This document shows, piece by piece, positions 20,568-39,088 of a stretch of 64,000 nucleotides of DNA. How positions within the stretch are numbered: the first letter of the stretch is position 1; every line of letters starts with the position of its first letter. The DNA comes from an uncultured Verrucomicrobiae bacterium (GTDB taxonomy: Bacteria; Verrucomicrobiota; Verrucomicrobiia; Limisphaerales; UBA11358), in the NCBI GenBank assembly GCA_963842445.1, contig CAWJHF010000009.1, forward strand, positions 20,217 through 84,216. The letters are read 5' to 3'. A program made the position numbers and the translations under genes. Under the pieces are notes generated by a model. That model was not told the origin of the DNA. It saw only the letters and a list, made by a program, of their open reading frames with translations, and ran no database searches.

Positions 20568-22442
20568 TCAACGCAATTTGACCAGGTACCAGTCAAGCGC
20601 GCCGCGCGAAGCGCGCAGGTTGAGTGGAATTTTCCAGACGACCTGCGCGTTCATGCGCTTGAGCCAGTCGTCCCGTGAACCGCCAAACGATTCCCCGAAC
20701 ATCCCGCCTCTGGCCAAAACATATTTGATACCCTGTCGCTTTAAATCCGCCGCTGTGTCTTCGGGGCAGACATGTTCGATACGACGCGAACCGAAAGGAT
20801 ACCACAGGGAAGTTTCAGGGTCTTCCGATGTGACCATTCCGAGAATTCCCGCGTCCGGCGGCAAAATGGCGCGCACCGGGGCAAAAGCGTCGGGGCGTTC
20901 GCGATAAACCAAATAGACCTCTTCCACCCGCGACAACAGTTTGGAATCGGGGACGCGCGTTTGAATTTTTCCCAAAATTGTCAGAACCGGAAACAACGGT
21001 CGCGCCGGCGAAACAATCAGCAATCCTGCGGCCATAAAAAGAACCGCGAAGACCGCCGCGCGCCACCAGCCTTTTTTCACCAGCCTTTCGTGCCCGGCAC
21101 AGGCGAGGAACGGCGGCAGCAAGAGGGCGTAATAGGACACCATAAGCCGGCCGATGATGGACCTATGGGATTGTGTCATCAGCGCAACCAGCGAAACGAG
21201 CGGAGCAAGCCGCACGCACGTTTGCCAGGTTGCCCAAGCGGTTGTTGGCCTGCTTCTCCGCTTCACAAACATTGTCGCCGCCACGCTGATCAACAGCAAA
21301 ATCGAAACCCCAAAACCCAGTCCGGCGTTCTCTTCGATTTGCATTTCATCCAACTGCAATTGGCAGTCGGGCCGCATGATGGTTTGTTGCAACCGCGTGC
21401 CCAGTTTCGGCGGAATCACGCGTTCCATGGTTTGGTTCCATTTTTCGGCCAGCGGGAAGACCGGTGGCACGAAATTTTCAATCGTCAGCAGCACGGTGTT
21501 CGCTCCCGCCTGAAACACCGGATCATTTTTTAAACCGACGGTCTCCGGCGCCTCCCCGGACCAATCGCCGCAAAATTTCCCGTTCAAAACCATGGTCGGC
21601 AGCGCCGAGGCGAAAATGGCGAGCGCGCAAACCGCGGAAGTTTTCAGCGGCCAGCGGAAGACCAATTTGATTGAAGGGAAAATCGCCACCGCCCACGGCA
21701 GCAACAGCGGCAGGTTGCCCGTTTTGGCGCTGGTCATCATCGCCGCCGCCAGCACGGACGCAAAAAAATCGTGCGCGGAACGGGAAACTTTTGCGCGCAG
21801 CGCAAAATCCACCGCCGCCAGCGCAAACGTCGCGCCGAACAGATCATTGCCGAGACTCCCGGCCTGCAGCAAAAGGCCGTAACCCGTCGGCACAATCCAC
21901 ATCCAAGGCCACGCCACCTGGCGCCGCACACCCAGACGCGTGAACACGCTGAACACCAGACCGGGCAACAGCAGGAAAGAAATCATATTGATCAGGAACA
22001 GCGGGCGGGCGGTCTTCAGCAGTGCGATAACGGGTGCGGAAACCCATTCGATGCCGCAGGATCGCGTGTTGAGGCACGGGAAAATTGTGTGAATCCAGTG
22101 CCATTGCCCCACAGCGAGCCAGTGCAACACCCGCGGAATGCGATAGGACAGCGCATCGTAATTGCTCGGCGCATACAAAACACCGCCGAGAAAAGCCATC
22201 GCCGCCAGAATCAAAAACGCCAGCGGGAACGGCCGCCGGAAACGGCAACGATACTTCCGCCACCGGACCCTGGGAAAAGCCGCTCCGGACGTTTTGAGTT
22301 TCCAGGCGCACAGAACAGCCATCCCAATCAGCAATGCCACCGCGTAGCCCGCGGCCGTTAATTGATGCACGGCGGAGAGCGCCCAGCCCGCACCATTGAG
22401 ATACGCGCAAATCCAAACCCAAATCCGAACCGCACCCGGCAT
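20568..22442 (-). CDS. large polytopic membrane protein, paralogue 1 (putative glycan polymerase or GT-C-like)
   Basis: ORF 20568..22724. Start placed at MPGAVRIWVWICAYLN (22442) by alignment with the paralogue start MPTIVLLWVWFCAYLN. Shares RRPFPLAFLILAAMAFLGG, IPRVLHWL and C-terminal DDWLKRMNAQVV...DWYLVKLR. Confidence 0.7.
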   Translation of the reverse strand: MPGAVRIWVWICAYLNGAGWALSAVHQLTAAGYAVALLIGMAVLCAWKLKTSGAAFPRVRWRKYRCRFRRPFPLAFLILAAMAFLGGVLYAPSNYDALSYRIPRVLHWLAVGQWHWIHTIFPCLNTRSCGIEWVSAPVIALLKTARPLFLINMISFLLLPGLVFSVFTRLGVRRQVAWPWMWIVPTGYGLLLQAGSLGNDLFGATFALAAVDFALRAKVSRSAHDFFASVLAAAMMTSAKTGNLPLLLPWAVAIFPSIKLVFRWPLKTSAVCALAIFASALPTMVLNGKFCGDWSGEAPETVGLKNDPVFQAGANTVLLTIENFVPPVFPLAEKWNQTMERVIPPKLGTRLQQTIMRPDCQLQLDEMQIEENAGLGFGVSILLLISVAATMFVKRRSRPTTAWATWQTCVRLAPLVSLVALMTQSHRSIIGRLMVSYYALLLPPFLACAGHERLVKKGWWRAAVFAVLFMAAGLLIVSPARPLFPVLTILGKIQTRVPDSKLLSRVEEVYLVYRERPDAFAPVRAILPPDAGILGMVTSEDPETSLWYPFGSRRIEHVCPEDTAADLKRQGIKYVLARGGMFGESFGGSRDDWLKRMNAQVVWKIPLNLRASRGALDWYLVKLR

Positions 22443-22650
22443 GTCTGATCGGCGCGGTTCAATACCGCCGTTGCATTCGATTTCGTTCATTTGAATCCGT
22501 AAAGCTCTCACGGCAAAACGACCACACTTCGGCCGTTGAATATTAAACTCTCCCAAGAAAAACAGGCAGGGTAAATTCAAATGGAACCGACCTGTGTGCA
22601 TGTCGGCACGATGAACCCGGCCTTCGGTTTCCTGGCGCGCAGCGTTCCGG

Positions 22651-22714
22651 CGTGCGCCGGACATTTGAAGAACAAGCGGCCGATGAACGACAGCACCGGG
22701 TTGGCGAGCGGGCG
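22651..22714 (-). pseudogene. 64-nt relic of the GT2 gene (copy of 20048-20112)
   Basis: Reads RPLANPVLSFIGRLFFKCPAH, compared with RWLGNPVLSFIGRFFFKCPAH in the intact GT2. About 5 mismatches over the stretch. No start codon and no flanking homology on the low-coordinate side. Confidence 0.6.
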
Positions 22715-22720
22715 TTTGGT

Positions 22721-24610
22721 TCAACGCAATTTCACCAGATACCAGTCGGTGGCGCCATCGCGCACGCGGAGATACAACGGAATTTTTTGGACGACCTGCG
22801 CGTTCATCCGCTTGAGCCAGTCGTCCGGCGAACCGCCAAACCAGTTTCCCAAAACCTTCGGCTTCACGAGAATGTATTCGATCCCGCGCTGTTTCAAGTC
22901 CGCCGGCGTGTCTGGCGGGCAGACATGCTCAACCCGCAGCGAGCCGAATGGCCGCCACAGGGAGGTTTCCGGGTCATCATAGGTGATCAATCCCAAAACC
23001 TTCACCTCCGGTGGCAATGCGGCGCGCGCAGGCGCAAACGCATCAGACCGGGCGTGATAGACCGAATAGACGGTTTCCACCCGCGCCAGCGCCGGATGCT
23101 GCGCCGCCGCCGCGTGGATTTTGTCCAAAAATATCCTGACCGGAAACAATGGCCGCGCCGGCGAAACAATCAGCAATCCCGACGCGATCAAAAAAACTGC
23201 GAATGCCGATGCCCGCCACCAGCGCCGTGCCACCAAACGCCCGTGGCCGGAGCCTGCGAGCAGCATCGGAACCAACAACGCGTAATAAGGCGCAAGGATG
23301 CGGCTGATAGGATACACCTCGGATTGACTTAACAAGGCGAGCAACGAAATCCATGGCATAAAACGAATGCCGCCTTTCCAGATGGCTTCGGTGGAGTTGA
23401 ACTGCCAAGGCAATAATGAGCGGCTGCGCCGCGTGGCGGCGGCCACCACGCTGACGAGGAAAAGAACCGTGACGCCGAAACCCAAACCAGCGGATTCCTC
23501 GATTTGCATTTCTTCGGCGCGAAATTCGGCGGCCTCCACTTCCACAACCGCCTCATGCAAACGCCGACTCAATCCGGGAGGAACGATTTTTTGGACTCGG
23601 CGATCCCACGCATTGGCCAGAGGAAAAACCGGCGGCGTTAGATTTTGAACCGTGATCAGCACGACATTCGCCGGCATCCGCAAGAAGGGGGCATTTCTTT
23701 GCGGCGTCCCCTCGGCCTTCCAACCCGTCCAGTCGCCGCAGTAATGTGCGTTGAAAACGGCGGTGGGAAGAAACGACGCGAAGATTGCGATGAGGCAAAC
23801 CGTCGCCGCCCGCACCGGCTGGCGCAAAATTAATTTCCCTGACGGCAAAATGGCGATGGCCCACGGCAGCAGCAAAGGCAGGTTGCTTGTCTTGGCACTG
23901 GTCATCAGCGCCGCCGCCAGCACGGACGCAAAAAAGTCGCGGGGCGCTTTGGAAACTTTTGCCCTTAACGCAAAGTCCAGCGCGGCCAGCGCGAAGGGCG
24001 CTCCGAACAAATCGTTGCCGATGCTTCCCGCCTGCAACAAAAAACAATAGCCGGTGGGAACAATCCACATCCAGGGCCACGCCACCCGCCGCCGCACCCC
24101 CAGCCGCGTGAACACGCTGAACACCAGCCCCGGCAACAACAGAAAGGAAACCATATTGATGAGAAACAGCAGCCGGTCGGTCTTCAGCAGCGCGATGAAT
24201 GGCGCGGAAACCCATTCGATGCCGCAAGCGCGCGCGTTCACGCGCGGGAAAATCGTATGAATCCAATGCCAGCGACCGTCCGCCAGCCAGTGCAAAATGC
24301 GGGGGACGCGGTAGGTCAGCCCGTCGTAGTTTGTCGGCGCGTAAAGTGCCCCGCCCAGAAAAGCCATTGCCGCCAGAATTAAAAACGCCAGCGGAAACGG
24401 CCGCCGGAAACGGCGGCGGAATTTTTGCCAGCGCACGTGCGGCAGAATTCGCGCGGACGTTCTTCGCCTCCAGATTCCCAGCGCGGCCGCCCCGGCCAAC
24501 AACGTGACCGCGTATCCCATCGCGCTTAGTTGATGCCCCGCGGACAGCGCCCAGCCAACGCAGTTCAGATACGCGCAGAACCACACCCAGAGAAGGACAA
24601 TCGTTGGCAT
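22721..24610 (-). CDS. large polytopic membrane protein, paralogue 2
   Basis: 629 aa, collinear with 20568..22442 over the full length. Confidence 0.75.
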   Translation of the reverse strand: MPTIVLLWVWFCAYLNCVGWALSAGHQLSAMGYAVTLLAGAAALGIWRRRTSARILPHVRWQKFRRRFRRPFPLAFLILAAMAFLGGALYAPTNYDGLTYRVPRILHWLADGRWHWIHTIFPRVNARACGIEWVSAPFIALLKTDRLLFLINMVSFLLLPGLVFSVFTRLGVRRRVAWPWMWIVPTGYCFLLQAGSIGNDLFGAPFALAALDFALRAKVSKAPRDFFASVLAAALMTSAKTSNLPLLLPWAIAILPSGKLILRQPVRAATVCLIAIFASFLPTAVFNAHYCGDWTGWKAEGTPQRNAPFLRMPANVVLITVQNLTPPVFPLANAWDRRVQKIVPPGLSRRLHEAVVEVEAAEFRAEEMQIEESAGLGFGVTVLFLVSVVAAATRRSRSLLPWQFNSTEAIWKGGIRFMPWISLLALLSQSEVYPISRILAPYYALLVPMLLAGSGHGRLVARRWWRASAFAVFLIASGLLIVSPARPLFPVRIFLDKIHAAAAQHPALARVETVYSVYHARSDAFAPARAALPPEVKVLGLITYDDPETSLWRPFGSLRVEHVCPPDTPADLKQRGIEYILVKPKVLGNWFGGSPDDWLKRMNAQVVQKIPLYLRVRDGATDWYLVKLR

Positions 24611-26045: not shown

Positions 26046-26366
26046 TTAGACTGTGTGCCTTGGGACATCCCGCGCACCGTGAAGGATGCGGATGATGTGC
26101 AGCCGGCGCGGCGCGGCGGTGACGCGGTAGAAAATCAGATAATTCGCGAACCGCCGCACCGGCCAGAAATGCATCCCGGACAATCCGGCGCGGTTGGATT
26201 CGTAGCGCGGACCAACTTCCGGCCATTGCGCCAGCGTGCGAAAGCTCAAACGCAGCGCATCCAGAAACCGGTCGGCGGCGGCGGGATTGTTCGTCGCGAT
26301 GAACAGATGAATGTCCGCCACGTCGTGAATCGCTTCCCCGGCGCGGATGATTTTAAGCGGCTTCAA
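26046..26366 (-). CDS. parE: type II toxin, RelE/ParE family
   Basis: ...NYLIFYRVTAAPRRLHIIRILHGARDV is a ParE-type C-terminus. Probable TTG start at 26366, overlapping the antitoxin stop by 14 nt. Confidence 0.7.
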   Translation of the reverse strand: MKPLKIIRAGEAIHDVADIHLFIATNNPAAADRFLDALRLSFRTLAQWPEVGPRYESNRAGLSGMHFWPVRRFANYLIFYRVTAAPRRLHIIRILHGARDVPRHTV

Positions 26367-26616
26367 GTTGCTTGAGCTTGCGGCGGGTACGGGCGCGTAT
26401 GCGGTCAAAGTCGGCATCGGTAAGCGGCTTGGCTAGGCTGCGCACGCCGGCAAGAAGCTTGTTATCCAGATCGGGAATGTTCAAAGCGGCCTGCTGCTCG
26501 GCTTTTTCCAAAGCGCGCAGGCCGGCGCGCACCACTTCGCTGGAATTGCCGTAGCGCCCGCTTTCAATCAAATCCCCGACCAGGTCCTCGTAGTATTTGC
26601 TCAAGGCGACGTTCAT
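26353..26616 (-). CDS. parD: type II antitoxin, ParD/CopG (RHH) family
   Basis: MNVALSKYYEDLVGDLIESGRYGNSSEVVRAGLRALE is a ParD-like RHH. Located directly upstream of the toxin. Confidence 0.75.
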   Translation of the reverse strand: MNVALSKYYEDLVGDLIESGRYGNSSEVVRAGLRALEKAEQQAALNIPDLDNKLLAGVRSLAKPLTDADFDRIRARTRRKLKQLEAA

Positions 26617-26665
26617 GGAACCAATCTAAGCCGATAACATTAGGTGTCAATAGCCGTTATTCATC

Positions 26666-26758
26666 AAATTTCCACCACCTGCTTGTATTCCGGCACGAGC
26701 ACCTCGGGTTTCGGCTTCATGGCGCGCAACGTTCCGGCACGGCCCAGCACCCGTGATT
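26666..26758 (-). pseudogene. duplicated 3' end (last ~25 codons plus stop) of the beta-CASP MBL gene
   Basis: Reads ...RAGTLRAMKPKPEVLVPEYKQVVEI-stop, compared with AETLHAMKPKAEVLVPEYKQVVEI-stop at 27432-27524. 9 mismatches in the first 73 nt, decaying beyond that. Confidence 0.75.
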
Positions 26759-26802: not shown

Positions 26803-27021
26803 ATGGTATCGCCACTGGCCAAAACCGCGCGGGTTCAGCGGAAGACCCTTTCCGTTGTGGATTTGCGTGATGACACGCGCACCCGGCGCCACTGGTTGCG
26901 CCAGCCGCCGATAAAGAGGCTTGAAGGGCTGGAATTGTTGCGCCAGAGTGCCCACGCTTATGATCCCGTTACCGCGCGACTTCCAAGACTTCTTAAGGTT
27001 GTTAAACGCAAACGCGATTAG
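26803..27021 (+). CDS. small helical protein, partner of the nucleotidyltransferase
   Basis: 72 aa. ...RRHWLRQPPIKRLEGLELLRQSAHAYDPVTARLPRLLKVVKRKRD resembles (from memory) small proteins found upstream of minimal nucleotidyltransferases. Overlaps the next gene by 62 nt in another frame. Confidence 0.5.
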   Translation: MVSPLAKTARVQRKTLSVVDLRDDTRTRRHWLRQPPIKRLEGLELLRQSAHAYDPVTARLPRLLKVVKRKRD

Positions 27022-27433
27022 GTATCTGGTCATCGGCGGTTATGCCGTGGCCTACCACGGCCACGTCCGTTACACCGGCGACCTCGACATCTTTGTGGAG
27101 CTTTCGATTGACAACGCGGAACGGATTGTCCGCGCCCTGCGCGAATTCGGCTTCGATCTGCCAAAACTGAAACCTGAATTGTTCCTGCGAAAAGGGAAAA
27201 TCGTCCGCATGGGACATGAACCGATGCGGCTGGAAATCCTCAATGAGATTGACGGCGTGAGTTTTGGTGAATGTTACCGGCAACGGTGCATGGCCAGGCT
27301 TGGCGATTTGAAAATCAACTTCATTGACCTGCCGCAGTTGTTGAAAAATAAACGCGCCAGCCGCCGCCCTCAAGATTTGGCCGACATTGCCGCACTGACA
27401 CCCAAGCCGCCGCGCAAAAAGGCCAGGCATTAA
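26960..27433 (+). CDS. minimal nucleotidyltransferase-fold protein (pol-beta superfamily)
   Basis: MIPLPRDFQDFLRLLNANAIRYLVIGGYAVAYHGHVRYTGDLDIFV gives a GG-x13-DxD motif. 157 aa. Confidence 0.7.
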   Translation: MIPLPRDFQDFLRLLNANAIRYLVIGGYAVAYHGHVRYTGDLDIFVELSIDNAERIVRALREFGFDLPKLKPELFLRKGKIVRMGHEPMRLEILNEIDGVSFGECYRQRCMARLGDLKINFIDLPQLLKNKRASRRPQDLADIAALTPKPPRKKARH

Positions 27434-28824
27434 ATCTCCACCACCTGTTTATATTCCGGCACGAGCACTTCGGCTTTCGGCTTCATTGCGTGTAACGTTT
27501 CGGCGTGCGCCAGGCATTGTGATTCCTCGCCGTGGATGCAGACGATTTTTTTGAGGTCGCCGGAGATTTTTCCGACGTATTTCTTCAGTTCATTTTTGTC
27601 CGCGTGGCCGGAGTAGGTGTCCAGCGAAACGATTTTGGCGCGCACGGCCTGCGGTTCGCCAAAAATGTTGACGGGATTCTGTCCGGCCACAATCTGCGCG
27701 CCCAACGTGTGTTCCGCACAAAAGCCGATGAACAGAATCAGATTGCCAGGATCGCCGATGTGGTTTTTGAGATGATGCCGGATGCGGCCCGCCTCGCACA
27801 TGCCCGACGCGCTGATGATGATGGCGGGTTCCCTCAAATCGTTCAGTTTCATAGAATTCGCGACTTCGCGGATGTAAGTGAGATTTTCCATGCCGAACGG
27901 ATTTTCCTTTTCGTGCAGGAACCGGTTGATGGTGTCGTTGAAACATTCCGGGTGCAGACGGTAAATCTCCGTGGCGTTCACGCTCAATGGGCTGTCCACA
28001 AAAATCGGCACGCGCGGCAGTTTCCCCGCCAGCGTGAGCTGGTGCAGCACATAGACAATCTGTTGCGTGCGCCCCACCGAAAACGCCGGGATGATGACCT
28101 TGCCGTTTTGTTTCAAGGTTTCCAGCACCATCCGGCCAACGGTTTCGTCGGCGTCCGTGCGGATGGAATGTTCGCGCCCGCCATAGGTGGATTCAATTTG
28201 AAGATAATCCACGTTTTCGACCGGCTCCGGGTCACGGAGAATTTCGTCATTGCCGCGACCGACATCACCACTGAACAAATAACGGAATTCCCGTCCGCCT
28301 TCCCGGATGTCCAGAACCACCTGCGCCGCGCCGAGAATGTGTCCGGCGTCACGGAACGTCACCGTCACACCGTCGAGCACCGGAAACGGGCGGCCGTAAT
28401 TGAAGGCGACGAATTGCTGGAGCGCTTTCTCGGCGTCGGCTTCGGAATAAAGCGGTTCGACCGGCGGCAGTTTTTGTTTCGCGCGTTTTTTGGAGACGAA
28501 CGCCGCGTCGTCCTTCTGGATCTGTGCGGAGTCCACCAGCATGATGCCGGACAGGTCGCGCGTGGCGAAGGTGCAGTAAATGTTGCCGGCGTAACCCTGT
28601 TTGCACAGGTTGGGCAGATTGCCCGCGTGATCAATGTGCGCGTGGCTCAACACCACGGCGTCCGCCTGCTTCGGGTCGAAGGGAAAGCAGCAGTTGCGCT
28701 GGATGGATTCCTCGCGCCGGCCTTGAAACAACCCGCATTCGAGCAACAACTGCTTGCTGTTGACCTCGAACAGATACATCGAGCCGGTCGTGGTGCGCGT
28801 TGCGCCGAAGAAGTGGATTCGCAT
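27430..28824 (-). CDS. MBL-fold metallo-hydrolase with beta-CASP domain (RNA-metabolising type)
   Basis: ORF 27430..28920; start MRIHFFGATRTTTGSMYLF (28824). HAHIDHAG motif, and a beta-CASP/RMMBL-type C-terminus ...SGHADKNEL. Confidence 0.85.
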   Translation of the reverse strand: MRIHFFGATRTTTGSMYLFEVNSKQLLLECGLFQGRREESIQRNCCFPFDPKQADAVVLSHAHIDHAGNLPNLCKQGYAGNIYCTFATRDLSGIMLVDSAQIQKDDAAFVSKKRAKQKLPPVEPLYSEADAEKALQQFVAFNYGRPFPVLDGVTVTFRDAGHILGAAQVVLDIREGGREFRYLFSGDVGRGNDEILRDPEPVENVDYLQIESTYGGREHSIRTDADETVGRMVLETLKQNGKVIIPAFSVGRTQQIVYVLHQLTLAGKLPRVPIFVDSPLSVNATEIYRLHPECFNDTINRFLHEKENPFGMENLTYIREVANSMKLNDLREPAIIISASGMCEAGRIRHHLKNHIGDPGNLILFIGFCAEHTLGAQIVAGQNPVNIFGEPQAVRAKIVSLDTYSGHADKNELKKYVGKISGDLKKIVCIHGEESQCLAHAETLHAMKPKAEVLVPEYKQVVEI

Positions 28825-30340: not shown

Positions 30341-30395
30341 AGCTTAAACCAGCGCGCTTAAACCGAAAGCGCAAACGCGACGCCCCGGCTGAATC

Positions 30396-30459
30396 CGGGA
30401 GGGACGGCGTGTCGCCGTCCCAAACCGAAATCAGGGACTCCGGCACGGCGTCCCTCCCC
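30396..30459. repeat. REP-like double hairpin of the GGGACGNCG family
   Basis: gggacggcg-tgt-cgccgtccc plus gggac...gtccc, enclosed by gggaggg...ccctccc. Lies directly 3' of the thiS stop. Confidence 0.6.
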
Positions 30460-30460
30460 G

Positions 30461-30670
30461 TTATCCACCCGCGACAATCTTGACGATTTCCAGCCGGTCG
30501 CCCGGGTTGAGTTGCCGTTGGGAAAATTCCGACGGCGCGACGGCCTCGCCGTTGTGCTCCACGACCACGCTGCGCGGCAGCAGCTTTTGCGCGACCAGAA
30601 ATTCCTCCAGCGAGCACGGCAGCTTCGCCTCGACCGGCTTTCCGTTGGCGGTGACGAATGCAGCTTTCAA
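30461..30670 (-). CDS. thiS: sulfur carrier protein ThiS (3' copy, possibly restarted from TTG)
   Basis: ...VTANGKPVEAKLPCSLEEFLVAQKLLPRSVVVEHNGEAVAPSEFSQRQLNPGDRLEIVKIVAGG has the C-terminal GG. The only plausible start is the TTG at 30670, overlapping the TGA of the upstream cassette gene. Confidence 0.6.
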   Translation of the reverse strand: MKAAFVTANGKPVEAKLPCSLEEFLVAQKLLPRSVVVEHNGEAVAPSEFSQRQLNPGDRLEIVKIVAGG

Positions 30671-31263
30671 GTTTGCTTCGGCTTGACTCCGCCGCGCAGA
30701 AGTTTTTCCAATTCCGACGCAACGGCCAGTTCGTTTGCCCAACGGCGCAAATAATTTTTGTCCAATGCGCCGCCCTGGACCGAAACAATTCCCGCAGCGT
30801 CGCCGAGTTGCCGTTCGGACGGCGTGATTTGATTCCAATAAAGTTTGTGCAGCAGCACGTCCTCCGCCGTGCCGATCCAGGCCGGCTGGCCGAACAATGT
30901 TATTGGTTTGCGGCGCGCAAACATCTCGCGCTCGAACGGCGCGGGCCGCAACAGCCAGAAATCCACCTTCAACGTCGAGCGCCGGTCAATGGCGTTGAAC
31001 TGATGCGGCGGCTGATACGCGGCGCGCACCGCCAATTCATCCAGAAAAAAATCACCGCTGAAGGCCGCCATTATTTTCGGAACGGCGGACGGCGGCAGTT
31101 GGATGACAAAATTCAAATCGTGCGTCGTGCGTGGAATGCCCCAGAAATTGCTCGCCATCGAGCCGGTGAGCAGATACGCCAGCTCCGAGCGGTTCAAGCG
31201 GCGGAGGCAATCCACCAACAGTTCGCGCTCGGTCACGATGCCCTCGCCAGTTCGAGCCGCCAA
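30667..31263 (-). CDS. minimal nucleotidyltransferase-fold protein (degenerate GS-x13-DxN motif)
   Basis: ...AYLLTGSMASNFWGIPRTTHDLNFVI... has the same spacing as the 26960 protein, but the second acidic residue is N. 198 aa. Confidence 0.65.
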   Translation of the reverse strand: MAARTGEGIVTERELLVDCLRRLNRSELAYLLTGSMASNFWGIPRTTHDLNFVIQLPPSAVPKIMAAFSGDFFLDELAVRAAYQPPHQFNAIDRRSTLKVDFWLLRPAPFEREMFARRKPITLFGQPAWIGTAEDVLLHKLYWNQITPSERQLGDAAGIVSVQGGALDKNYLRRWANELAVASELEKLLRGGVKPKQT

Positions 31264-31436
31264 TGCAGAAACTGCTCCACTTGCGCGTCATCGGCATCGG
31301 GATGCTGCGCGCGGATGCCTTCGCGAGCGATATCGCACGATAACTCATGCAAGTCCAGCGCGATGGCCAGCCGCTCTTCGCCGCTCATTTCGCGGTAACG
31401 CCCAATCTGAAAATCCAGTGCCGCCTGCGGACTCAT
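31233..31436 (-). CDS. small helical protein, partner of the nucleotidyltransferase
   Basis: 67 aa: MSPQAALDFQIGRYREMSGEERLAIALDLHELSCDIAREGIRAQHPDADD... Its ATG (31434-31436) overlaps the TGA of the thiS 5' relic, and it overlaps the next gene by 31 nt. Confidence 0.55.
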   Translation of the reverse strand: MSPQAALDFQIGRYREMSGEERLAIALDLHELSCDIAREGIRAQHPDADDAQVEQFLHWRLELARAS

Positions 31437-31579
31437 GGAATGAATTTAATGCGATTCAATGGAAATGTCACGACCACGCTGCGCGGCAACAGTTTTTGAG
31501 CAATCAGAAATTCCTCAAGCGAGCACGGCAGCTTCGCCTCCACCGGCTTTCCGTTGGCGGTGACGGACGATGGATTCAC
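31433..31579 (-). pseudogene. thiS: thiS 5' fragment (native start plus ~38 codons) displaced by the cassette insertion
   Basis: From the GTG at 31579: (M)NPSSVTANGKPVEAKLPCSLEEFLIAQKLLPRSVVV, then unrelated TFPLNRIKFIP-stop. Confidence 0.7.
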
Positions 31580-31604
31580 ATTTTCAAATCTGTTCTTTAA
31601 TAAA

Positions 31605-31697
31605 CACCGAACATCCCACATCGAACTCTGAACATCGAAGTTATTCGACTACGACACATTAGACGTTCGATGTTCAATGTTGGGTGTTCGATGTTCC
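31605..31697. repeat. imperfect palindrome of inverted heptamer arrays (ATCGAAC / GTTCGAT)
   Basis: Left units accgaac/atcccac/atcgaac/tctgaac/atcgaag. Right units gttcgat/gttcaat/gttgggt/gttcgat/gttcctc. Sits between the thiH stop (31702) and the thiS relic start. Confidence 0.65.
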
Positions 31698-31701
31698 TCA
31701 T

Positions 31702-32904
31702 TTATGCTGTCAACGCCGCGTCCCAATCTTTCCACACCGGCTCGTAGCCAAGTTTGCGGATCAAATCCGCCACTTCGCCGGCGGAACGGTCATCGGCAAT
31801 TTCAAATTGGCCGGTCGCGTTCGTCGCGCGGTTCGGCTGCGGCGCCCATTCGCTGGCACCGGACGCCAGTTCCACAATCCGGCCGCGCACGGTTTGATGC
31901 AGCTTTTCCCTGCCCGCGCCGGTGTAACCGCCCGGCTCAGTGTGGCTGCCCGCGCTCATCATCGTAATGCCCAGCGGGAGCAGGCCGTCGCGCAGTTTCG
32001 ATGATTCGCGCGTCGAAAGCACCAGACCAACGTCGGGAAACATGATGCGCAGGGCGCAGACCAGTAGCGCCAGGTCGCGGTCGCTCATGTGCGTGAGCGG
32101 CTGGAATTCGCCCGCGCACGGACGCAGCCGCGGCAGCGAAATCGTCAACTGCGCCTTCCAGCAATTACGCAACAAATAATCCGCATGCGCGGCAACGCTG
32201 ATGGCTTCAAACCGCCAATCGGCCAGTCCGTAAAGCGGGCTGATGCCGAGCCGGCGGAAACCGGCGGCGTAGGCGCGTTCTGGCGTTTCGAGCCGCCACT
32301 CGAAATTCCGTTTCGGCCCGGCGGTGTGCATGTCCGCATAAACTTTCCGGTCGTAGGATTCCTGATAAACCACCAGCCCGTCCGCGCCCGCCGCAACCAG
32401 CGGCGCGTAGTCGGCAGTTCCCATCGGCCCAACTTCGAGTGAAATGCTTGGCCACTCCGGATGCAGCGCAGCGATGCAGTCGCGCAGGTAATTGTTCGAG
32501 ACAAATTTCGGATGTTCGCCCGCGACGAGCAGGAGGTTCCGGAATCCTTGTGACTTGAGTTCCGCCGCCTCGCGTTTCACTTCGTCCAGCGAGAGCGTCA
32601 CGCGCAGAATCGGGTTGTCGCGCGAGAAACCGCAGTATTGGCAGTTGTTGATGCACTCATTGGAAAGGTAAAGCGGCGCGAACAACCGGATGACCTTGCC
32701 GAACCGCTGCTGCGTCATCATGTGCGATCGCCGGCCCATGTGCTCCAGCAATTCAGCCGCCGCCGGCGAAATCAGGTTCGCAAAATCCGCGAGCGACAGC
32801 CTGGGTTTCGCCAGACTTTCCCGCACCGCCGGCGCACCAGCCGCCAGCGACCGTTGCGCCAGCGACTGCGCCGGCAACGAATTGAACTCGGAGACAAAGC
32901 TCAC
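31702..32904 (-). CDS. thiH: 2-iminoacetate synthase ThiH (radical SAM)
   Basis: LYLSNECINNCQYCGF carries the CxxxCxxC radical SAM cluster. Full-length ThiH-like, 400 aa. Confidence 0.9.
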   Translation of the reverse strand: MSFVSEFNSLPAQSLAQRSLAAGAPAVRESLAKPRLSLADFANLISPAAAELLEHMGRRSHMMTQQRFGKVIRLFAPLYLSNECINNCQYCGFSRDNPILRVTLSLDEVKREAAELKSQGFRNLLLVAGEHPKFVSNNYLRDCIAALHPEWPSISLEVGPMGTADYAPLVAAGADGLVVYQESYDRKVYADMHTAGPKRNFEWRLETPERAYAAGFRRLGISPLYGLADWRFEAISVAAHADYLLRNCWKAQLTISLPRLRPCAGEFQPLTHMSDRDLALLVCALRIMFPDVGLVLSTRESSKLRDGLLPLGITMMSAGSHTEPGGYTGAGREKLHQTVRGRIVELASGASEWAPQPNRATNATGQFEIADDRSAGEVADLIRKLGYEPVWKDWDAALTA

Positions 32905-33001: not shown

Positions 33002-34345
33002 ATGGCACGCAAATTTTCAAAACCGCACCGCGGCGCGTCGTTCATGGTGCTTGGCGTCGGCTCATTCGCGCAGAGCATCGGTGCGGCACTGGCCGACGCC
33101 GGCGCAAGTGTTTCGACCTATCTCACGCGCAATTACGGCCATTTCCCGCCGTCGCTCGTCGGACCCACTTTTTCGCATGGTTCAGTCGCCAGCCCGGTTC
33201 CGCTGATCAAGAAGCATGGCGTTGATGCCGTCATTCCGCAGTCCATTGACTGGGCGCTGGCCCCGTGGGCGGAGGATTTGCTGCAATCGGGCGCCGGCAT
33301 TTTCAGTCCCACGCGCGAGGCGATGCGCATCGAACGCGAACGTGATTTTGCCCGGAAACTGTGTGCCGAGTTCAAAATTCCGTTCCCGCAGGCTTACGTC
33401 GCGTCGAACCGGCTGGAGACCGAAAAAATTCTAACAAATCATCCGCAGCCGTTCGTCATTAAAAACCCGCTCTGCTCGCCGACCAGTCCGATTCACACGA
33501 TTTTGTGCGAGACCATCGAGGATACCCGTGCCTGGCTGCGGCATGTGAATTATGCCGAGGGCGTTTTTTTGCAGGAATACCTTGGACGCGCCGAGGCCGG
33601 ACACATTGCGCTGGTGAGCAGCGGCGAAATTTATTCGCTCGTCACGAACCAGGAATACAAATACGCCTTCAATGGCAACCAGGGCATCGTCGCCGGTGCG
33701 CCGCTGGGCGGCTTGGTCGAGCGCGACGAAAACGACAAATACGGCCTGGCGCGCGAATTGATTCATCCGCTGCTGCCTTGGTTTCGGAAAGTGAATTATC
33801 ACGGCCCGATTCAAGTGACGGCCATCAAAGTAGGACAGGCTTCCAGCCTGTCTCCATCGAAAAAGAAGTTAGAGACAGGCAAGATGCCCGTCCTGCGCGG
33901 CAAATGGCACGTCATCGAATACAACATCCGCATTGGCGTCACCTCCGGCCCGATGATTTTGCGGATGCTCAAAAACCCGGCGGAAATTGTCCTGCAAACC
34001 GCGCGGAACCAAAAACTGGAATTGCAGTTCAATGAAAAATTGAACTTCGGCTGTTCGCTCACGTTGGCGGGTTACGGCTACCCGTTCACGCAGGTGCGCA
34101 GTCCGCACCTGCCGCTCGAAGTGGACGGCCAGTTTGATTGCGATGTGTGGTGGAACGAAGTGGCGCGCGGCGCGGACGGCCAATTGATAGCCACCGGCCA
34201 TCGCATTGCGGACGTGATTGCGCTCGCGCCGAAGCTCGACGCAGCGATTGCGAAGGCTTACGCCAACATTCGCAAAATCCGGGTCGTAGGCAGCTACTTC
34301 CGGACGGACGTTGGACAAAGTTTATGGCCACCGGGGAACGTGTGA
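33002..34345 (+). CDS. PurD-like ATP-grasp protein (phosphoribosylamine--glycine ligase family, divergent)
   Basis: ATP-grasp core (...FVIKNPLCSPTSP..., ...VFLQEYL...) and a PurD-like C-domain (...GHRIADVIALAPKLDAAIAKAYANIRKIRVVGSYFRTDVG). Atypical N-terminus. Confidence 0.65.
   Translation: MARKFSKPHRGASFMVLGVGSFAQSIGAALADAGASVSTYLTRNYGHFPPSLVGPTFSHGSVASPVPLIKKHGVDAVIPQSIDWALAPWAEDLLQSGAGIFSPTREAMRIERERDFARKLCAEFKIPFPQAYVASNRLETEKILTNHPQPFVIKNPLCSPTSPIHTILCETIEDTRAWLRHVNYAEGVFLQEYLGRAEAGHIALVSSGEIYSLVTNQEYKYAFNGNQGIVAGAPLGGLVERDENDKYGLARELIHPLLPWFRKVNYHGPIQVTAIKVGQASSLSPSKKKLETGKMPVLRGKWHVIEYNIRIGVTSGPMILRMLKNPAEIVLQTARNQKLELQFNEKLNFGCSLTLAGYGYPFTQVRSPHLPLEVDGQFDCDVWWNEVARGADGQLIATGHRIADVIALAPKLDAAIAKAYANIRKIRVVGSYFRTDVGQSLWPPGNV
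33830..33898. repeat. 69-nt double-hairpin element inserted in frame in the PurD-like gene
   Basis: gtaggacaggc-ttcca-gcctgtc ... gacaggc-aagat-gcccgtcct. Encodes VGQASSLSPSKKKLETGKMPVLR between IQVTAIK and GKWHVIEYN. Confidence 0.6.
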
Positions 34346-34417: not shown

Positions 34418-36640
34418 TTACCTGGCGATTGACACGCCCAGAGCGCGCAATTGATTTTTGATTTCGGGGGAATCGGGCTTCAACCGCAACGCCGCCTCGT
34501 AGTCCAACGCCGCTTCTGCACGTGCCTTGTCTTTTTCCAGGCCGGGATCGCGAAGAATGGCGTTGGCCAGATTGGTGAAGGTTTCCGGGTCATCCGGTTT
34601 GAGCCACAGGCTTTCACGGAAATGCAGTTCCGCACTCCGCAGGTCGCCTTCCGACTCGAAGTGGGCGGCCCATCTTTGGTGAAGTTTCCGGGTAAATTCC
34701 GCAGTGTCAAAATTCCGCGCCAACCAGACGCCAGCCAGAGCGATGAGCGCAAGCAACAAAACCAAAAATTCAGCAAAGCCGTCCCGCCAAAAACCGGCTC
34801 GATGACAAGCCACGCTGAATCCGGCAAGCAGGACGCACAGTAACAATCCAGTCAACAATATGGCCACCGCGTGATTCAGCAGCAAAAGCGCGTAATAAGA
34901 CAGGCGACCCATTTCCTGGATTTCGCCCACTGCCACCCACGAGTCACGGCTTTGATCGGTGATTTCCAGCCGGAATGGATTTCGGGGAGCGGCGATGGTA
35001 ATCGTATGCCATCGCCCGATGATTTTGGGCGACAGTTTGATTATGCGGCCGGTCTGCTGTTCCACCAACTGGAGGCTGATGCCGTTCGTGCCCGGATCGC
35101 AGCACAACTGGATGTTCAATTCGGGCAGAGTGGCGGAGAGCGGTTGGCTGACAAAATGGCCGGGCGTGGCCGTCTCATTGGTTGAGTAGTTGCCCCACAC
35201 GCGGGTGAATTCCCGCTTGGGTTTTCCAGGCGGATAACCGTCCAAAACAAATGAGGCATCGGAGGTTTCGCCCTTCTCCAGTTTTAATGGCGAACGACAG
35301 GCGGCGGGCATGATGCGCGACAATTTCGGATCACGCAGCGACTCGATGAGCCAGCCGGAGTCCCACGCCGGAATATGCCAGACCGGTTTGTTCTGCAAAT
35401 ACTTGGGATCGCCGGTGGCGACAAACGCACGGACATTTTCCTCCTGAACCAGCCCCAATTGTCTGGTCCATGGCCAATACCCGTCCACCGTCCCGCGATC
35501 CGCGATTGCCCCCCGGGAGATCTGCCACATTCCCGCGAAAACGGAACCTGTCCATACTATGGCGAGCAGCACCGTCAGCCACCTTGAAAACCGGCGAAAC
35601 TCAGCGCCTTGCCAGATGACCAACCAACTCACAAGGCTGGCAATGGGGATGGCGCAATGCATGTCCAGGTAGCGGCTGCTGTTCCCAAGGTTCACGCGCC
35701 CGTATGCCAGAGCTGCTGATTGCAGAAAGCCCCAAAACCCAAAGGCGATAAGAAATTCAGCCGCTCTCGGAGACTTGAAGTCGGACCGGAAATATTCAAC
35801 CACGGTAATGATCAGCGGCAAACAAACGAAGAATGACATGGCCGGCTGATCTCCAAACGGCCACGCCAGATTGCCCGTCAGCGCATCCAAAAATGCCGGA
35901 AATGATTTTGCCTTAAAAGGCTTGTCTCCTTCAACGTTGACATGCAAAAGCAGACCAAAAACAAATACCGCCAGACAGCAACCGAGGGTGATGATCTGTT
36001 TCCGGGCGATGCGTTTTTCTTTCAGCATTCGGACAATCATCAAACCGATGACGGCCAGAGAAGCCAGCAAACCGGAACCCATTGTGACAATGGACATCAT
36101 TGCCGCGGCAAGCCCGAAAAACCAACGGACGCTCCCCGGCGATCCGAATCCCAGCCAGATGATTGCCGCAAGCGCAAAAATGCTCACAAAATACATCTGG
36201 GACTGGAAGCCATGAATCGTATTGTCCATCGCAAAGGGAAACGCGAAAAACGGCGCCAGCAGGAAACAAATCAAGCCTTCCCTTTTTTTGCCCGTCAAAA
36301 CCCACAGGCAATACGCCAAACCGCAGGCAAAGCCGGCGTGGATGAAGGCGTTGATCGTCATCTGCAGCAGCGGATCCCACTGGCCGTTGAGCCGCACCAC
36401 AAAAAGATCCAGCACGCGCGTAAAGAAAATCCTGTGCTCATTGTGTGGTGCGAACAATGCGCCCCACGTCAGATGGCCTTCCAGCCAGGGCTTGAACAAA
36501 AGCCTCGCCTCGGACCATTGATCCCAGTAAGGAATGGCCGTTGCATAAACCTGGATGACCCACAGCTTGGCACCTGCAATCACCAGAAACAACGCCGTCA
36601 GGCACGCGGTCAGCCTTAATTTGGGGTTATTGAACTGCAC
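34418..36640 (-). CDS. large polytopic membrane protein with extracytoplasmic insert and C-terminal TPR-like tail (paralogue B)
   Basis: 740 aa, GTG start at 36640. The N-terminal ~330 aa are collinear with 39030..40742 (LWV(I/V)Q(V/L)Y..., WDQW.EA, HNEHR/INEHR, LQMT/SINAFI). Confidence 0.75.
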   Translation of the reverse strand: MQFNNPKLRLTACLTALFLVIAGAKLWVIQVYATAIPYWDQWSEARLLFKPWLEGHLTWGALFAPHNEHRIFFTRVLDLFVVRLNGQWDPLLQMTINAFIHAGFACGLAYCLWVLTGKKREGLICFLLAPFFAFPFAMDNTIHGFQSQMYFVSIFALAAIIWLGFGSPGSVRWFFGLAAAMMSIVTMGSGLLASLAVIGLMIVRMLKEKRIARKQIITLGCCLAVFVFGLLLHVNVEGDKPFKAKSFPAFLDALTGNLAWPFGDQPAMSFFVCLPLIITVVEYFRSDFKSPRAAEFLIAFGFWGFLQSAALAYGRVNLGNSSRYLDMHCAIPIASLVSWLVIWQGAEFRRFSRWLTVLLAIVWTGSVFAGMWQISRGAIADRGTVDGYWPWTRQLGLVQEENVRAFVATGDPKYLQNKPVWHIPAWDSGWLIESLRDPKLSRIMPAACRSPLKLEKGETSDASFVLDGYPPGKPKREFTRVWGNYSTNETATPGHFVSQPLSATLPELNIQLCCDPGTNGISLQLVEQQTGRIIKLSPKIIGRWHTITIAAPRNPFRLEITDQSRDSWVAVGEIQEMGRLSYYALLLLNHAVAILLTGLLLCVLLAGFSVACHRAGFWRDGFAEFLVLLLALIALAGVWLARNFDTAEFTRKLHQRWAAHFESEGDLRSAELHFRESLWLKPDDPETFTNLANAILRDPGLEKDKARAEAALDYEAALRLKPDSPEIKNQLRALGVSIAR

Positions 36641-36866: not shown

Positions 36867-36879
36867 GCGGGCCAGCCCG

Positions 36880-36958
36880 CATCCGCAAAGACCGGGTCGT
36901 GGGCAGTTACTTCCGGACGGACAGTGGCCAAAGCCTGTGGCCGCCGGGACAGGTTTGA
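36880..36958 (+). pseudogene. relic 3' end (25 codons plus stop) of a PurD-like gene
   Basis: Reads IRKDRVVGSYFRTDSGQSLWPPGQV-stop, compared with IRKIRVVGSYFRTDVGQSLWPPGNV-stop at 34267-34345. 57 of 69 nt are identical. Confidence 0.65.
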
Positions 36959-37075: not shown

Positions 37076-39088
37076 TCATTTTTTGGTGTCCGGTTGCGGA
37101 TAGTCCAATCGGTATAAACGAAGCCGCATTGGCGATTGATAACAAGCCGCCGAGCCGGATTGGGTTAAAGCGAAGACTGTCATAGACGTTACCGTGGCAT
37201 CGGTCAGGCGGCGCTCGTCGTGTGTAGCCAGCGCAATGAACGAGGCGTTGTCGTTGATAAACGGCGACAGCAGGAATCCGCCGCTAGCCATGCCGGGAAC
37301 CAGACGGAAGTACAGTCGTTGACCGTTTCGCAGGGACACTGCCAGCACCAAGGTTGGCGGCTTGTAGAGCGCAGCAATGAATGATCCCAGCAGGGTTTTG
37401 TTTATCTCCAATTCGGCCCAGAGGGCACCGTTGGTCGTCGCTGGCAGCATGACGGGCTCGGCGAAGCGAATGAGCGAATCCTTGAGCGGCACTAAGTGAT
37501 ATTCCCCGGGCGTGGCGGATTTCTTCAAAAGCACAAAATCCCTCGTCGTGCCTTGGACGTTGTATCGGGTCAAAAGTTCCGGCCAAGATCGGCCGTCATC
37601 GAGTGAAGGGTATCGCCCATCCAATGTTCGGAGGGTGAATAGAACATTGTCAGCAGTGCGCCCGACGCGCAGATAGGCCGCGTTCATTTCGGCCAGGGCC
37701 AGTGTGTAGGCGGAATAGCTTTGGAAGACAGGTCGCGGCGTATAACGCAAACCGTGGGCGAAGATGACGACTTGATCCCAAGGATATACATCCACTGTAC
37801 CACCTAATTCCGGCAGGGGATACGCATCACGGATTTCAGCAAGGCGATTTTCATACGCGGTTTTCATGGCATTCGCCTCGTAAAGCAGCTTTGCCGGAGA
37901 CAGGACGATACGGGGATCGAATGTTTCGACGAAGCGCATGAACAAACCCTTTCCCGGAACGCAACGGTTAAACGCCAGGAAGGCATACATCAAAATGACG
38001 ATACCCAGCAACCAGCCCATCAGCATGGTTTTCCTGCTTCTGTTTCGCAAAAACGGTTGCGCCGCCCCCAAACCCAACAAACCAATTAACAACACCGTGA
38101 GTACTGCCTCGGATTCGTGTTGGTCATGCCTGACAAAGCCGTGCTTGAAGGCAAGGAAAAGCACAAGTCCCAAACCGATCAACGGCAACGTGCCAAACCA
38201 TCTATATTTCGTGGACGCCGCCATGCCTATCGGGACACACGCTCCGGCGGCGGCCAGCCAAAAAACCACTGCGTCCCGAAGTTCCGTTCCCCCGCCGGTC
38301 ATCATCGCCTCGGTGTAACCACTGGTGATCCGCCATGAATTGCATAAAAACGGCCCGAACGAACTCAAGCGTTGTCCGGCAGCCAGCCAGAAGAAAAGTA
38401 CACTGAGGCCAAACACGGCTAACAGCCAAGGAATCCGGCAACGTCGCAATACGTCATCCGCCGCAATAGTGAGCACAATTCCCCCCGCCATCAGCAAGCC
38501 GGTAAACTTGGTCAACCCCAACAAAGCCAGCGATATCACCAACAGGATTTTTATCATCGAGAATGCGGTGTCATTCACAAAAAAGTGCAGGAACAACAAA
38601 ATTAAAACCCAGGCATCCAGTCGAACGTCGAAATCCTGATCCACCGGCAACCCTGTGACGCCGATGCATCCTATCATCCACAACCATGCCACGGATTCAT
38701 GCATCCAGAAACGGCGGGCCATCTGCCAGAGGCACCACCATAAAACGATCGCCAGTGTCATCCATACCATCGTGGAAACCATGAATGTCGGCGGATAGTA
38801 CCCGCCGCACAAAAATCCCCATGGCCCAAAGGTAAAGACGAGATCGCGTCCGAACTGCAGATGTTGGACAAAGGCGAAATGCAACGTTTGCACCCAGGAT
38901 TCATCTAGGGTGTAAACCGGACTATGGCCAGGAGGCGAACAAGGCACGAAACGCGAGATGGTGTAAGCCAGTGTAGTCAACCCAACCAGCCAATGAACCG
39001 GGAACCACGTCCGGAGCCACATTTTGGAATCAGTGGGCGGCATGCGATTCCTCCATTGCCGCTCGTAGCTCATCGGCCTTATGTTCAT
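37076..39088 (-). CDS. large polytopic membrane protein with C-terminal soluble domain (unknown family)
   Basis: 670-aa ORF with many TM segments followed by a ~270-aa hydrophilic C-terminal region. Start uncertain (Met codons at 39088, 39073, 39043, 39022). Confidence 0.7.
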   Translation of the reverse strand: MNIRPMSYERQWRNRMPPTDSKMWLRTWFPVHWLVGLTTLAYTISRFVPCSPPGHSPVYTLDESWVQTLHFAFVQHLQFGRDLVFTFGPWGFLCGGYYPPTFMVSTMVWMTLAIVLWWCLWQMARRFWMHESVAWLWMIGCIGVTGLPVDQDFDVRLDAWVLILLFLHFFVNDTAFSMIKILLVISLALLGLTKFTGLLMAGGIVLTIAADDVLRRCRIPWLLAVFGLSVLFFWLAAGQRLSSFGPFLCNSWRITSGYTEAMMTGGGTELRDAVVFWLAAAGACVPIGMAASTKYRWFGTLPLIGLGLVLFLAFKHGFVRHDQHESEAVLTVLLIGLLGLGAAQPFLRNRSRKTMLMGWLLGIVILMYAFLAFNRCVPGKGLFMRFVETFDPRIVLSPAKLLYEANAMKTAYENRLAEIRDAYPLPELGGTVDVYPWDQVVIFAHGLRYTPRPVFQSYSAYTLALAEMNAAYLRVGRTADNVLFTLRTLDGRYPSLDDGRSWPELLTRYNVQGTTRDFVLLKKSATPGEYHLVPLKDSLIRFAEPVMLPATTNGALWAELEINKTLLGSFIAALYKPPTLVLAVSLRNGQRLYFRLVPGMASGGFLLSPFINDNASFIALATHDERRLTDATVTSMTVFALTQSGSAACYQSPMRLRLYRLDYPQPDTKK

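Follow-up and report, generated by a model that had tools for sequence, protein, structure and literature searches.

How did a two-gene cassette come to stand between thiH and thiS, and why is the 5' end of thiS found on both of its sides? These questions are raised by a stretch of 64,000 nucleotides from an uncultured Verrucomicrobiae bacterium (contig CAWJHF010000009.1; hereafter the window), in which every feature of the thiH-thiS locus described below lies on the minus strand. We identified the cassette as a toxin-antitoxin module of the known MenA1/MenT1 type, and we give a probability of roughly 0.6 to the explanation that it reached thiS by homology-anchored insertion, a gene-end displacement of the type ascribed to homology-facilitated illegitimate recombination (HFIR). 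The two copies of the thiS 5' end are direct repeats at 31469-31564 and 30560-30655. A recount confirmed the 89 of 96 identical nucleotides reported in the first-pass annotation of this DNA, and both copies do encode ThiS residues, VTANGKPVEAKLPCSLEEFL(I/V)AQKLLPRSVVV; weaker similarity stretches the repeat to 115 nt (100/115), up to both start codons. Of the seven differences, only the I/V exchange alters the protein; the other six are synonymous. Codons 1-5 are far more diverged between the copies, with 8/15 nucleotides identical (VNPSS vs LKAAF). The resident upstream gene is thiH (2-iminoacetate synthase; 31702-32904), whose product has Radical_SAM and BATS domains and an equivalog-level match to TIGR02351 (4.3e-130). 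After the native thiH-thiS spacer of 122 nt (31580-31701), the upstream copy keeps the GTG start at 31579, runs through the first 37 codons of thiS and then leaves it for an 11-codon tail, together a 48-codon ORF, thiS' (31433-31579); the tail is in reality the promoter region of the cassette. There follow the antitoxin gene (67 aa, 31233-31436), the toxin gene (189 aa, GTG start, 30667-31236) and the intact thiS (69 aa, TTG start, 30461-30670), whose product ends in GG and also gives an equivalog-level match (TIGR01683, 6.4e-16). The insert, from 31468 to 30560, comprises 909 nt, in which promoter, antitoxin and toxin are followed by thiS codons 1-37 for the second time, with a short match (CGTG/GTCGTG) at the joint of thiS codon 37 and the cassette promoter.

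The picture drawn earlier, of a cassette inside a duplicated thiS 5' end which leaves the operon intact and lets thiS restart at the toxin stop, was therefore borne out, and so were the overlaps of stop and start codons at both junctions. On the right, the toxin TGA (30669-30667) overlaps the thiS TTG (30670-30668) within TTGA (30670-30667). In two relatives with the cassette, L002 and L003, the matching start is an ATG inside ACATGA, which supports TTG 30670 as the true start of thiS and its coupling to the toxin ORF (WIN denotes the window's own locus, L-numbers the loci fetched from relatives and P-numbers further members of the toxin family). Judged from these overlapping codons, translation of the intact thiS would be coupled to that of the toxin, and ThiS synthesis probably depends now on transcription and translation through the cassette. 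On the left, the TGA of thiS' (31435-31433) overlaps the antitoxin ATG (31436-31434) within ATGA (31436-31433). Nearly all antitoxins of the family begin with ATGA, which ends any in-frame upstream ORF, so that this overlap is largely incidental; the cassette moreover has a promoter-like site of its own. Coupling at both ends had been suggested, and only its right-hand half still seems likely. Could the duplication itself be an artefact, produced by a metagenome assembly that mixed two strain alleles of thiS? The source is indeed a metagenome assembly, and relatives with a filled and an empty site occur in one sample. However, both repeats are present in identical form on an independent contig of 2.57 Mb, and the same architecture recurs with diverged sequence in four further samples (L003-L006), and also in other collections and in the output of other assemblers. 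Because of these two observations we regard the architecture as genuine and leave next to no room for an artefact.

The nature of the two cassette proteins became clear from different kinds of searches. The antitoxin matches Pfam PF18993, the Rv0078B-related antitoxin family, with E=1.2e-10 (41.7 bits at a cut-off of 27.1), and shows a weak direct match to MenA1 itself (chain 8an5_C, E=0.24). The toxin gave 2094 database matches; among the best 120, nearly every one has a length of 189 aa and aligns from the position of GTG 31236. The protein is therefore 189 aa and its start overlaps the antitoxin stop by 4 nt (GTGA); the 198-aa nucleotidyltransferase with a 31-nt overlap that had been proposed has to be corrected accordingly. 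At E<=1 it has no match among the families of Pfam, NCBIfam and PADLOC, and by sequence no DUF1814/AbiEii assignment; phmmer found no PDB sequence, and neither phmmer nor a profile against PDB sequences found MenT1. Only a profile search and a fold search identified it: the family profile aligns its TGS-x13-HDLD segment (GS...DxD) with the nucleotidyltransferase TM1012 (E=0.11), and the AlphaFold (AF2) model, with a pLDDT of 92.3, has MenT1 (Rv0078A; 8an5/8an4/8rr5) as all of its top five Foldseek hits, over the full length, with E from 1.8e-6 to 3.6e-5 and TM of 0.60-0.69. The likeness to MenAT1 of Mycobacterium tuberculosis (Rv0078B/Rv0078A) extends to the layout, in which a helical PF18993 antitoxin of 67-68 aa stands directly upstream of a minimal nucleotidyltransferase of about 190 aa. 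The predicted toxin fold best matches MenT1, and the residues at the positions of its D41, K137 and D152 appear conserved in the family. On the other side, sequence identity to MenT1 is only 15-17%; MenT toxins have been identified by the DUF1814 domain (PMC10435456), which this protein does not match. At the first motif position it has Asp in place of the Thr/Ser that is auto-phosphorylated in MenT toxins, and it belongs to another phylum. MenT1 adds CMP to the 3' ends of tRNA, and the 68-aa MenA1 blocks two toxin protomers (PMC10435456). By analogy, the cassette is expected to act in the same way, the toxin nucleotidylating tRNA 3' ends and the small antitoxin blocking it.

Is the toxin of the window still active? 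Its motif reads TGS-x13-HDLN, with N42 at 31113-31111, which confirms the reported lack of a second catalytic acid. The family consensus, however, is DxD, so that the loss is particular to one lineage: D40 and D42 are nearly invariant, K131 and D146 invariant, and N42 is seen only in the toxin of the window and its 99% twin. The catalytic residues of MenT1 are T39, D41, K137 and D152, and the changes D41A, K137A and D152A abolish toxicity (PMC10435456); the family residues D40, D42, K131 and D146 were set against these four by motif position and the TM1012 alignment only. D42N, read from the sequence, is a recent, lineage-specific change at the presumed position of the essential second carboxylate, a carboxylate that the window copy has exchanged for Asn, and the toxin is for that reason probably inactive or attenuated. 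Substitutions of D40 occur in other family members, namely L092 (toxin at 3501-4067; HGLDF), P0093 (HNLDF) and also P0039, a pattern which suggests repeated, independent inactivation of the toxin within the family. Frequent pseudogenisation of chromosomal toxins has been reported, in agreement with this pattern. Upstream of the antitoxin, GTGACA-17 nt-TAAATT (31443-31471) is the only sigma-70-like match in 30350-31760. It ends 6 nt before the antitoxin ATG, and its -35 element overlaps the last 3 nt of the thiS repeat, so the antitoxin mRNA may well be leaderless or nearly so. Under strict criteria, comparable elements were found upstream of the antitoxins at 28/147 family loci against 44/2940 shuffles, a 13-fold enrichment; the idea of a canonical promoter at most family loci is unsupported, as only these 28 loci pass.

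Approximately 160 toxin loci were fetched from species-representative genomes and metagenomes. Almost all are from Verrucomicrobiota (Limisphaerales, Chthoniobacterales and Verrucomicrobiales), and in nearly all the antitoxin is encoded some 200 nt ahead of the toxin; the 4-nt overlap of antitoxin stop and toxin start was checked directly in 84 loci. Only a single clade of the toxin tree sits between thiH and thiS, to which a metagenome scan with the toxin added few further members. Within this clade the thiS 5' remnant is present in the window and its twin (WIN/L001), L003-L006, L092 and L093, with one extra codon in L003; in L002 only about 25 nt of it are left, with the same junction; in L012, L105 and L049 there is no remnant and thiS starts without overlap on the toxin stop; and in L087 and L088 the 3' end of thiH is duplicated after the toxin instead. 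The junction GTCGTG|ACATTTC is identical in WIN, L002, L092 and L093, whose toxins are only 75-90% identical, which shows that it is old and was not made in this genome. L003 breaks after the same thiS codon as the window and has diverged sequence downstream. We weighed L012 and L049 as the ancestral state against the remnant as the ancestral state; since the junction is present in the most divergent members, L092 and L093, an old junction with later losses is favoured. In L003 (3205-3660) and L012 (909-1340) an ORF of about 140-150 aa lies between thiH and the remnant or cassette; it has an N-terminal hydrophobic segment and looks by eye like type II secretion pseudopilins. It is absent from the window and adds to the signs that the thiH-thiS intergenic space is variable.

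The same distribution bears on the idea that the arrangement serves thiamine synthesis, either because the nucleotidyltransferase acts on ThiS, for example by adenylylating its C-terminus, or because the thiS' ORF is a regulatory leader. The cassette is kept between thiH and thiS across the whole clade, and the overlaps of stops and starts would couple translation, as such a role would lead one to expect. However, most family members, with toxins 62-75% identical, adjoin unrelated genes, nearly always together with a MenA1-type antitoxin; linkage of the pair to thiH/thiS in one clade only led us to reject it as a constant partner of ThiS. The closest host relatives are without the cassette, the catalytic Asp is mutated in the window, and L002, L012 and L049 have a shortened remnant or none, while that of L003 has an extra codon. 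A scan with Rfam found no TPP riboswitch and no other RNA family at the locus. The family distribution and N42 lead us to reject an enzymatic role in thiamine synthesis, and we consider any such function of the arrangement very improbable. The invariant C-terminal Thr-stop of the toxin was also considered as a sign of a conserved overlap with thiS, and rejected because it is present in all contexts.

What did the site look like before the cassette? We looked up ThiH homologues 88-91% identical to that of the window, which is closer than the ThiH of the other cassette-bearing lineages, and so followed up an earlier suggestion to search relatives for empty sites. One was found in L169, whose ThiH is 91% identical: thiH is followed by a spacer of 67 nt and an intact thiS. 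The spacer is colinear with that of the window and has the same CATCGAAC-type palindrome motifs. The upstream segment of the window is colinear with L169 up to thiS codon 37 (...GTGGTCGT) and then breaks, and its downstream thiS is colinear with the L169 gene from start through stop. L169 shares a sample with the window's twin, and filled and empty relatives co-occur: ERZ25039540 contains the filled contig_12048 together with the empty-site contig_28838. Other relatives have different genes at this site. In L167 a Sel1-repeat protein of 289 aa is encoded between thiH and thiS, and in L170 (4220-6660), a genome without the cassette, ORFs of 166, 73 and 323 aa follow thiH in this order, with thiS remnants behind the first (up to about codon 35) and the second (up to about codon 27) and the intact thiS behind the third. 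Both remnants are 82-85% identical to the intact gene, and the three ORFs are unrelated and without family assignment. It follows from L167 and L170 that the thiH-thiS site is a hotspot not tied to one kind of cargo. Since unrelated cargo shows the same flanking pattern, the first-pass view of the cassette itself as the mobile module has to be abandoned: mobility belongs to the site and to host recombination.

In the window the 122-nt spacer contains an imperfect palindrome with 40-nt arms (31600-31705; inverted repeats I1-I4), built from AACATCGAAC-like units, of which L169 has a shorter version; the motif has no dispersed copies elsewhere in the 64 kb and no match to an Rfam family. Directly after thiS there is a G+C-rich inverted repeat (30397-30458; I2) with 25-nt arms that are 84% complementary. 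It is a possible terminator without a T-run and was not called in a terminator scan; its first bases (TAACGGGGAG) are common to L169, after which the sequences diverge.

It had been proposed that the pair might elsewhere be flanked by diverged duplications of local host genes, and this is what we observed. Direct repeats of 40-200 nt with 80-100% identity flank the pair at 34/84 genome loci and at 29/73 metagenome loci with adequate flanks; under uniform criteria they were found at 54 of 144 cassettes as against 2 of 408 random 770-nt segments of the same loci. More than a third of the insertion sites of this one cassette family thus bear a legible scar, the diverged remnant of the end of a neighbouring housekeeping gene. 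The repeats are clade-specific host sequence. In most cases the upstream gene (IlvD, HisB/IGPD, HemC, Glu/Gln-tRNA synthetase, ThiH) has its 3' end repeated behind the toxin, and in some the downstream gene (ThiS, a HemN-like radical-SAM gene) has its 5' end repeated ahead of the promoter. The boundary at the gene end is constant and the opposite one variable: the ilvD remnants (54, 79 and 89 nt) all reach to the stop codon, and thiS remnants end at codons 37, ~35 and ~27. Arrays occur as well. In L017 (2014-5830) four copies of the ilvD 3' end are present, in which the gene is followed by a MenAT1-like pair, a remnant of 54 nt, a 91-aa ORF with a 132-aa HNH endonuclease (PF01844), a remnant of 89 nt, a 69-aa ORF and a final remnant of 79 nt; extra gene-end copies also occur in L009, L021 and L027.

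Two further sites in the window itself have this form. The 3' end of a purD-like gene (34262-34345; the last 28 codons, ANIRKIRVVGSYFRTDVGQSLWPPGNV*) recurs 2.6 kb downstream at 36875-36958 with 79% identity, and the segment between contains, on the minus strand, the gene of a 740-aa polytopic membrane/TPR protein (34418-36640). This gene is only 39-43% identical to its counterpart in L169 and L167, while purD is 81-84% identical. The site looks like a displacement signature with a divergent allele as cargo. A different membrane protein gene, of 670 aa (37076-39088), lies after the purD-like remnant. The second site is the 3' end of a beta-CASP gene (27428-27524; ...MKPKAEVLVPEYKQVVEI*), which recurs at 26662-26758 with 80% identity beyond a single ORF of 170 aa on the opposite strand (26921-27433, plus). 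The product has a GG...TGDLDI motif reminiscent of a minimal nucleotidyltransferase and no Pfam match. Beyond the remnant follow a ParD antitoxin gene (PF03693, 2.9e-9) and a ParE-like gene, in ORFs 26353-26616 and 26046-26417, both on the minus strand, and the beta-CASP end is a second small hotspot of toxin-antitoxin-like cargo. At both sites the reading frame is kept in the two copies, each of which closes with a stop codon. The beta-CASP-end repeat has a third, weak copy at 22575-22671, and the region of about 20050-24600 contains a tandem pair of paralogous segments, 71-86% identical, at a spacing of about 2.15-2.17 kb (families D1, D2, D4, D6 and D8-D10).

Could such structures be the work of a dedicated recombinase? 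One may imagine small circular cassettes integrated site-specifically by an enzyme encoded elsewhere, either integron-like or cis-mobilisable, so that the copied gene end is a surrogate att site carried by the element. Arrays split by copies of one gene end, in which the latest cassette adjoins the intact gene, resemble tandem accretion at an att site or an integron array, and the cassettes are without an internal mobility gene. The likeness to chromosomal integron arrays includes small cassettes of one or two genes, intervening repeats of 50-140 nt and the frequency of toxin-antitoxin cassettes, and integrase-less att-flanked (cis-mobilisable) elements and tycheposon-like islands share with our loci a partial duplicate of the target end, an intact gene and tandem accretion. 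Yet the targets comprise at least nine unrelated genes and both 5' and 3' ends, the repeat lengths vary at a single site, as seen for ilvD and thiS, and no core sequence is common to the repeat boundaries, whereas cis-mobilisable elements and tycheposons use a tyrosine recombinase and a fixed core site, usually at 3' ends or tRNA genes. There are no attC-like palindromes or terminal inverted repeats at the cassette ends, the cassettes have promoter-like sites of their own, unlike those of integrons, and the repeats are coding ends of host genes that differ from site to site. No integrase was found in or beside the cassette within the 64-kb window. The many unrelated targets, the use of both gene ends, the varying lengths and the missing common core leave a site-specific recombinase only a slim chance. 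Two more specific candidates are excluded by the anatomy of the cassette. An integron cassette does not agree with a promoter-like site of its own, the lack of a palindrome at the 3' boundary and repeats made of host coding sequence (a search for intI elsewhere in the genome was not made). A transposon or insertion sequence would share with the locus the direct repeats of the target on both sides of the insert, but both ORFs are a toxin-antitoxin pair; transposon target-site duplications are 2-15 nt, of fixed length and identical when made, and come with terminal inverted repeats and a transposase, and we found none of this here, where the repeats are 40-200 nt and diverged. The earlier opinion that the repeat is not a fresh target-site duplication is therefore shared by us. 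Of the two origins it had offered, homology-facilitated illegitimate recombination is now the better supported, and the element-borne surrogate gene end is weakened by the lack of an integrase in or beside the cassette and of a fixed core.

The insertion that we favour may be pictured as follows. Donor DNA from a related genome, in which the cassette already stood directly in front of thiS, would pair on the right with the resident thiS, and its non-homologous left end would be joined illegitimately inside that gene after codon 37. The working thiS would then begin with sequence delivered by the cassette, restarting at the toxin stop (TTGA), and the resident start would be pushed upstream and left behind the native spacer as a remnant of 37 codons. 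The finished structure could spread among related genomes by ordinary homologous recombination in its flanks, while recombination or gene conversion between the two thiS copies would keep them similar. The process would be open to either gene end and to any cargo, with remnants and arrays at ilvD, hisB, hemC, the tRNA-synthetase gene, the hemN-like gene, thiH, the purD-like gene and the beta-CASP gene. Several observations agree with this scheme. The donor-like arrangement exists in L049, L012 and L105, where the cassette is directly before thiS without a duplicate. Host genes and cassette tell different histories: ThiH, IF-1 and beta-CASP of the window are 91, 95 and 87% identical to those of the cassette-free L169 as against 75, 71 and 78% to those of L002, whereas its antitoxin and toxin are 89% identical to those of L002. 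Because of this discordance we conclude that the cassette moved between hosts at the same site after the hosts had diverged. Over the 96-nt core, cassette-linked copies elsewhere consistently agree better with the intact copy than with the remnant (90 vs 85, 89 vs 86 and 86 vs 83 of 96), and codons 1-5 of thiS are as diverged between the two copies as between true orthologues. In pooled ungapped repeat pairs, whose loci are not independent, codon positions 1/2/3 account for 10/13/45 differences (44 of the total synonymous, 24 non-synonymous), a third-position share of 0.66 when roughly 0.46-0.51 would be expected for a functional copy beside a neutrally decaying pseudo-copy.

The alternative that deserves the closest comparison is a duplication in situ, in which the cassette, perhaps with a few bases of donor flank, entered at a long staggered break or by replication slippage or template switching, about 100 nt of the resident thiS being doubled and the copies diverging later with occasional conversion. 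In its favour one may cite L088, in which the 3' end of thiH is duplicated after the toxin (2029-2090 and 2888-2945): a block of 45 nt is 100% identical, and a short diverged block adjoining the cassette, the 12 nt before the stop, has 5 differences (ALTA* vs ALTM*). The window is its mirror image, with a core 93% identical and codons 1-5 only 53%. Remnant and intact copy are almost equally far from L169 (84 vs 83 of 96), and remnants resemble the thiS of their own genome more than they resemble the remnants of other genomes. All this would fit a duplication in situ. The breakpoint of L088 lies inside the repeat, which indicates that recombination or conversion acts on the repeats and accounts for the resemblance of the remnants to their own genome's thiS. 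Against a duplication in situ we count the third-position and synonymous bias, which exceeds that of a neutrally decaying pseudo-copy, and the junction common to lineages whose toxins differ by 25%, since so old a duplicate should have decayed unless it were constantly converted. Arrays with unequal remnants would need repeated long staggered events at one gene end. In addition, we know of no enzyme that makes target duplications of 40-200 nt. On balance such an origin seems to us unlikely, though not far-fetched.

Homology-anchored insertion in its turn faces several difficulties. The mosaic of L088 fits an 'ends-in' or in-situ event better than a simple replacement. When the seven differing sites were compared with 12 other thiS sequences, one tied the remnant to the nearest host relatives and two tied the intact copy to cassette-associated copies, and the nearly equal identity of the two copies to L169 points neither way. 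The codon-position bias is partly expected for an in-situ duplicate as well, whose functional copy would gain synonymous changes, and the pooled loci are phylogenetically non-independent. The microhomologies at the joints are just 4 nt (CGTG at codon 37 and the promoter, ATGA at the toxin stop and the gene start), too short to suffice alone. HFIR is rare in experiments (PMC5361080), and natural competence of these uncultured bacteria is an assumption. An anchor of homology on one side also leaves the first arrival beside each housekeeping gene unexplained, and a recombinase acting in trans may exist outside the 64 kb of this genome covered here. At first we favoured single-crossover integration of a circular intermediate; it is now kept as a variant only, because an 'ends-in' or circular-intermediate route gives the same product as linear HFIR and the three are indistinguishable by sequence.

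Both halves of this account, the type of toxin-antitoxin pair and the logic of recombination, are already known, and the remark that no module of such architecture had been described does not hold: the cassette is of the MenAT1 type, and the displacement arrays of Rhs, CDI and T6SS loci offer an analogue (PMC5361080). Those arrays, of Rhs genes, of orphan cdiA-CT/cdiI pairs in CDI and of T6SS effector-immunity genes, have been attributed to HFIR (Kirchberger 2017, PMC5361080). In that model, homology to a conserved stretch of a gene anchors one end of the incoming DNA, the opposite end is joined by illegitimate recombination, and the resident gene end comes to lie behind the new module (PMC5361080). 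Features that our loci appear to share are the homology-anchored module, the remnant of the resident gene end, the growth of arrays by successive events and the absence of a dedicated recombinase. Jackson 2009 is reported to attribute displacement arrays to HFIR as well. What Rhs, CDI and T6SS loci displace is a variable toxic tip that belongs to the gene family itself, and selection acts there on immunity, whereas at our loci the 5' and 3' ends of ordinary housekeeping genes serve as anchors for unrelated cargo, such as toxin-antitoxin pairs, an HNH pair and a membrane protein. Displacement, known until now from polymorphic-toxin loci, is thereby extended to ordinary core genes.

The cassette at thiS is one example of a widespread addition of small gene cassettes beside housekeeping genes in these soil bacteria, and as far as we have found, the literature has no description of its systematic setting throughout Verrucomicrobiota at housekeeping gene ends that bear remnants and arrays. 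For annotation it means that short 'ORFs' that repeat the end of a gene next to a small cassette should be read as remnants and not as genes, and that the true start of a host gene may sit inside an insert, as here with the TTG-initiated ThiS over the toxin stop. Because empty sites, other cargo, arrays and discordant histories are all present in public data, the insertion pathway can be tested by comparative genomics. Chromosomal integration of toxin-antitoxin genes was still called unclear in a 2026 study (PMC13617665). We suggest, tentatively and at somewhat less than even odds, that Verrucomicrobiota of the Limisphaerales type routinely gain small cargo beside their core genes by a recombinase-free, homology-anchored displacement of gene ends, through which toxin-antitoxin pairs, nuclease pairs and divergent alleles of membrane proteins accumulate in integron-like arrays with the ends of housekeeping genes as address tags, the MenAT1-like family alone being found at at least seven core-gene ends. 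If this is true, HFIR would rank as a major natural way of acquiring chromosomal toxin-antitoxin and defence genes, and one that can be read from the sequence alone.

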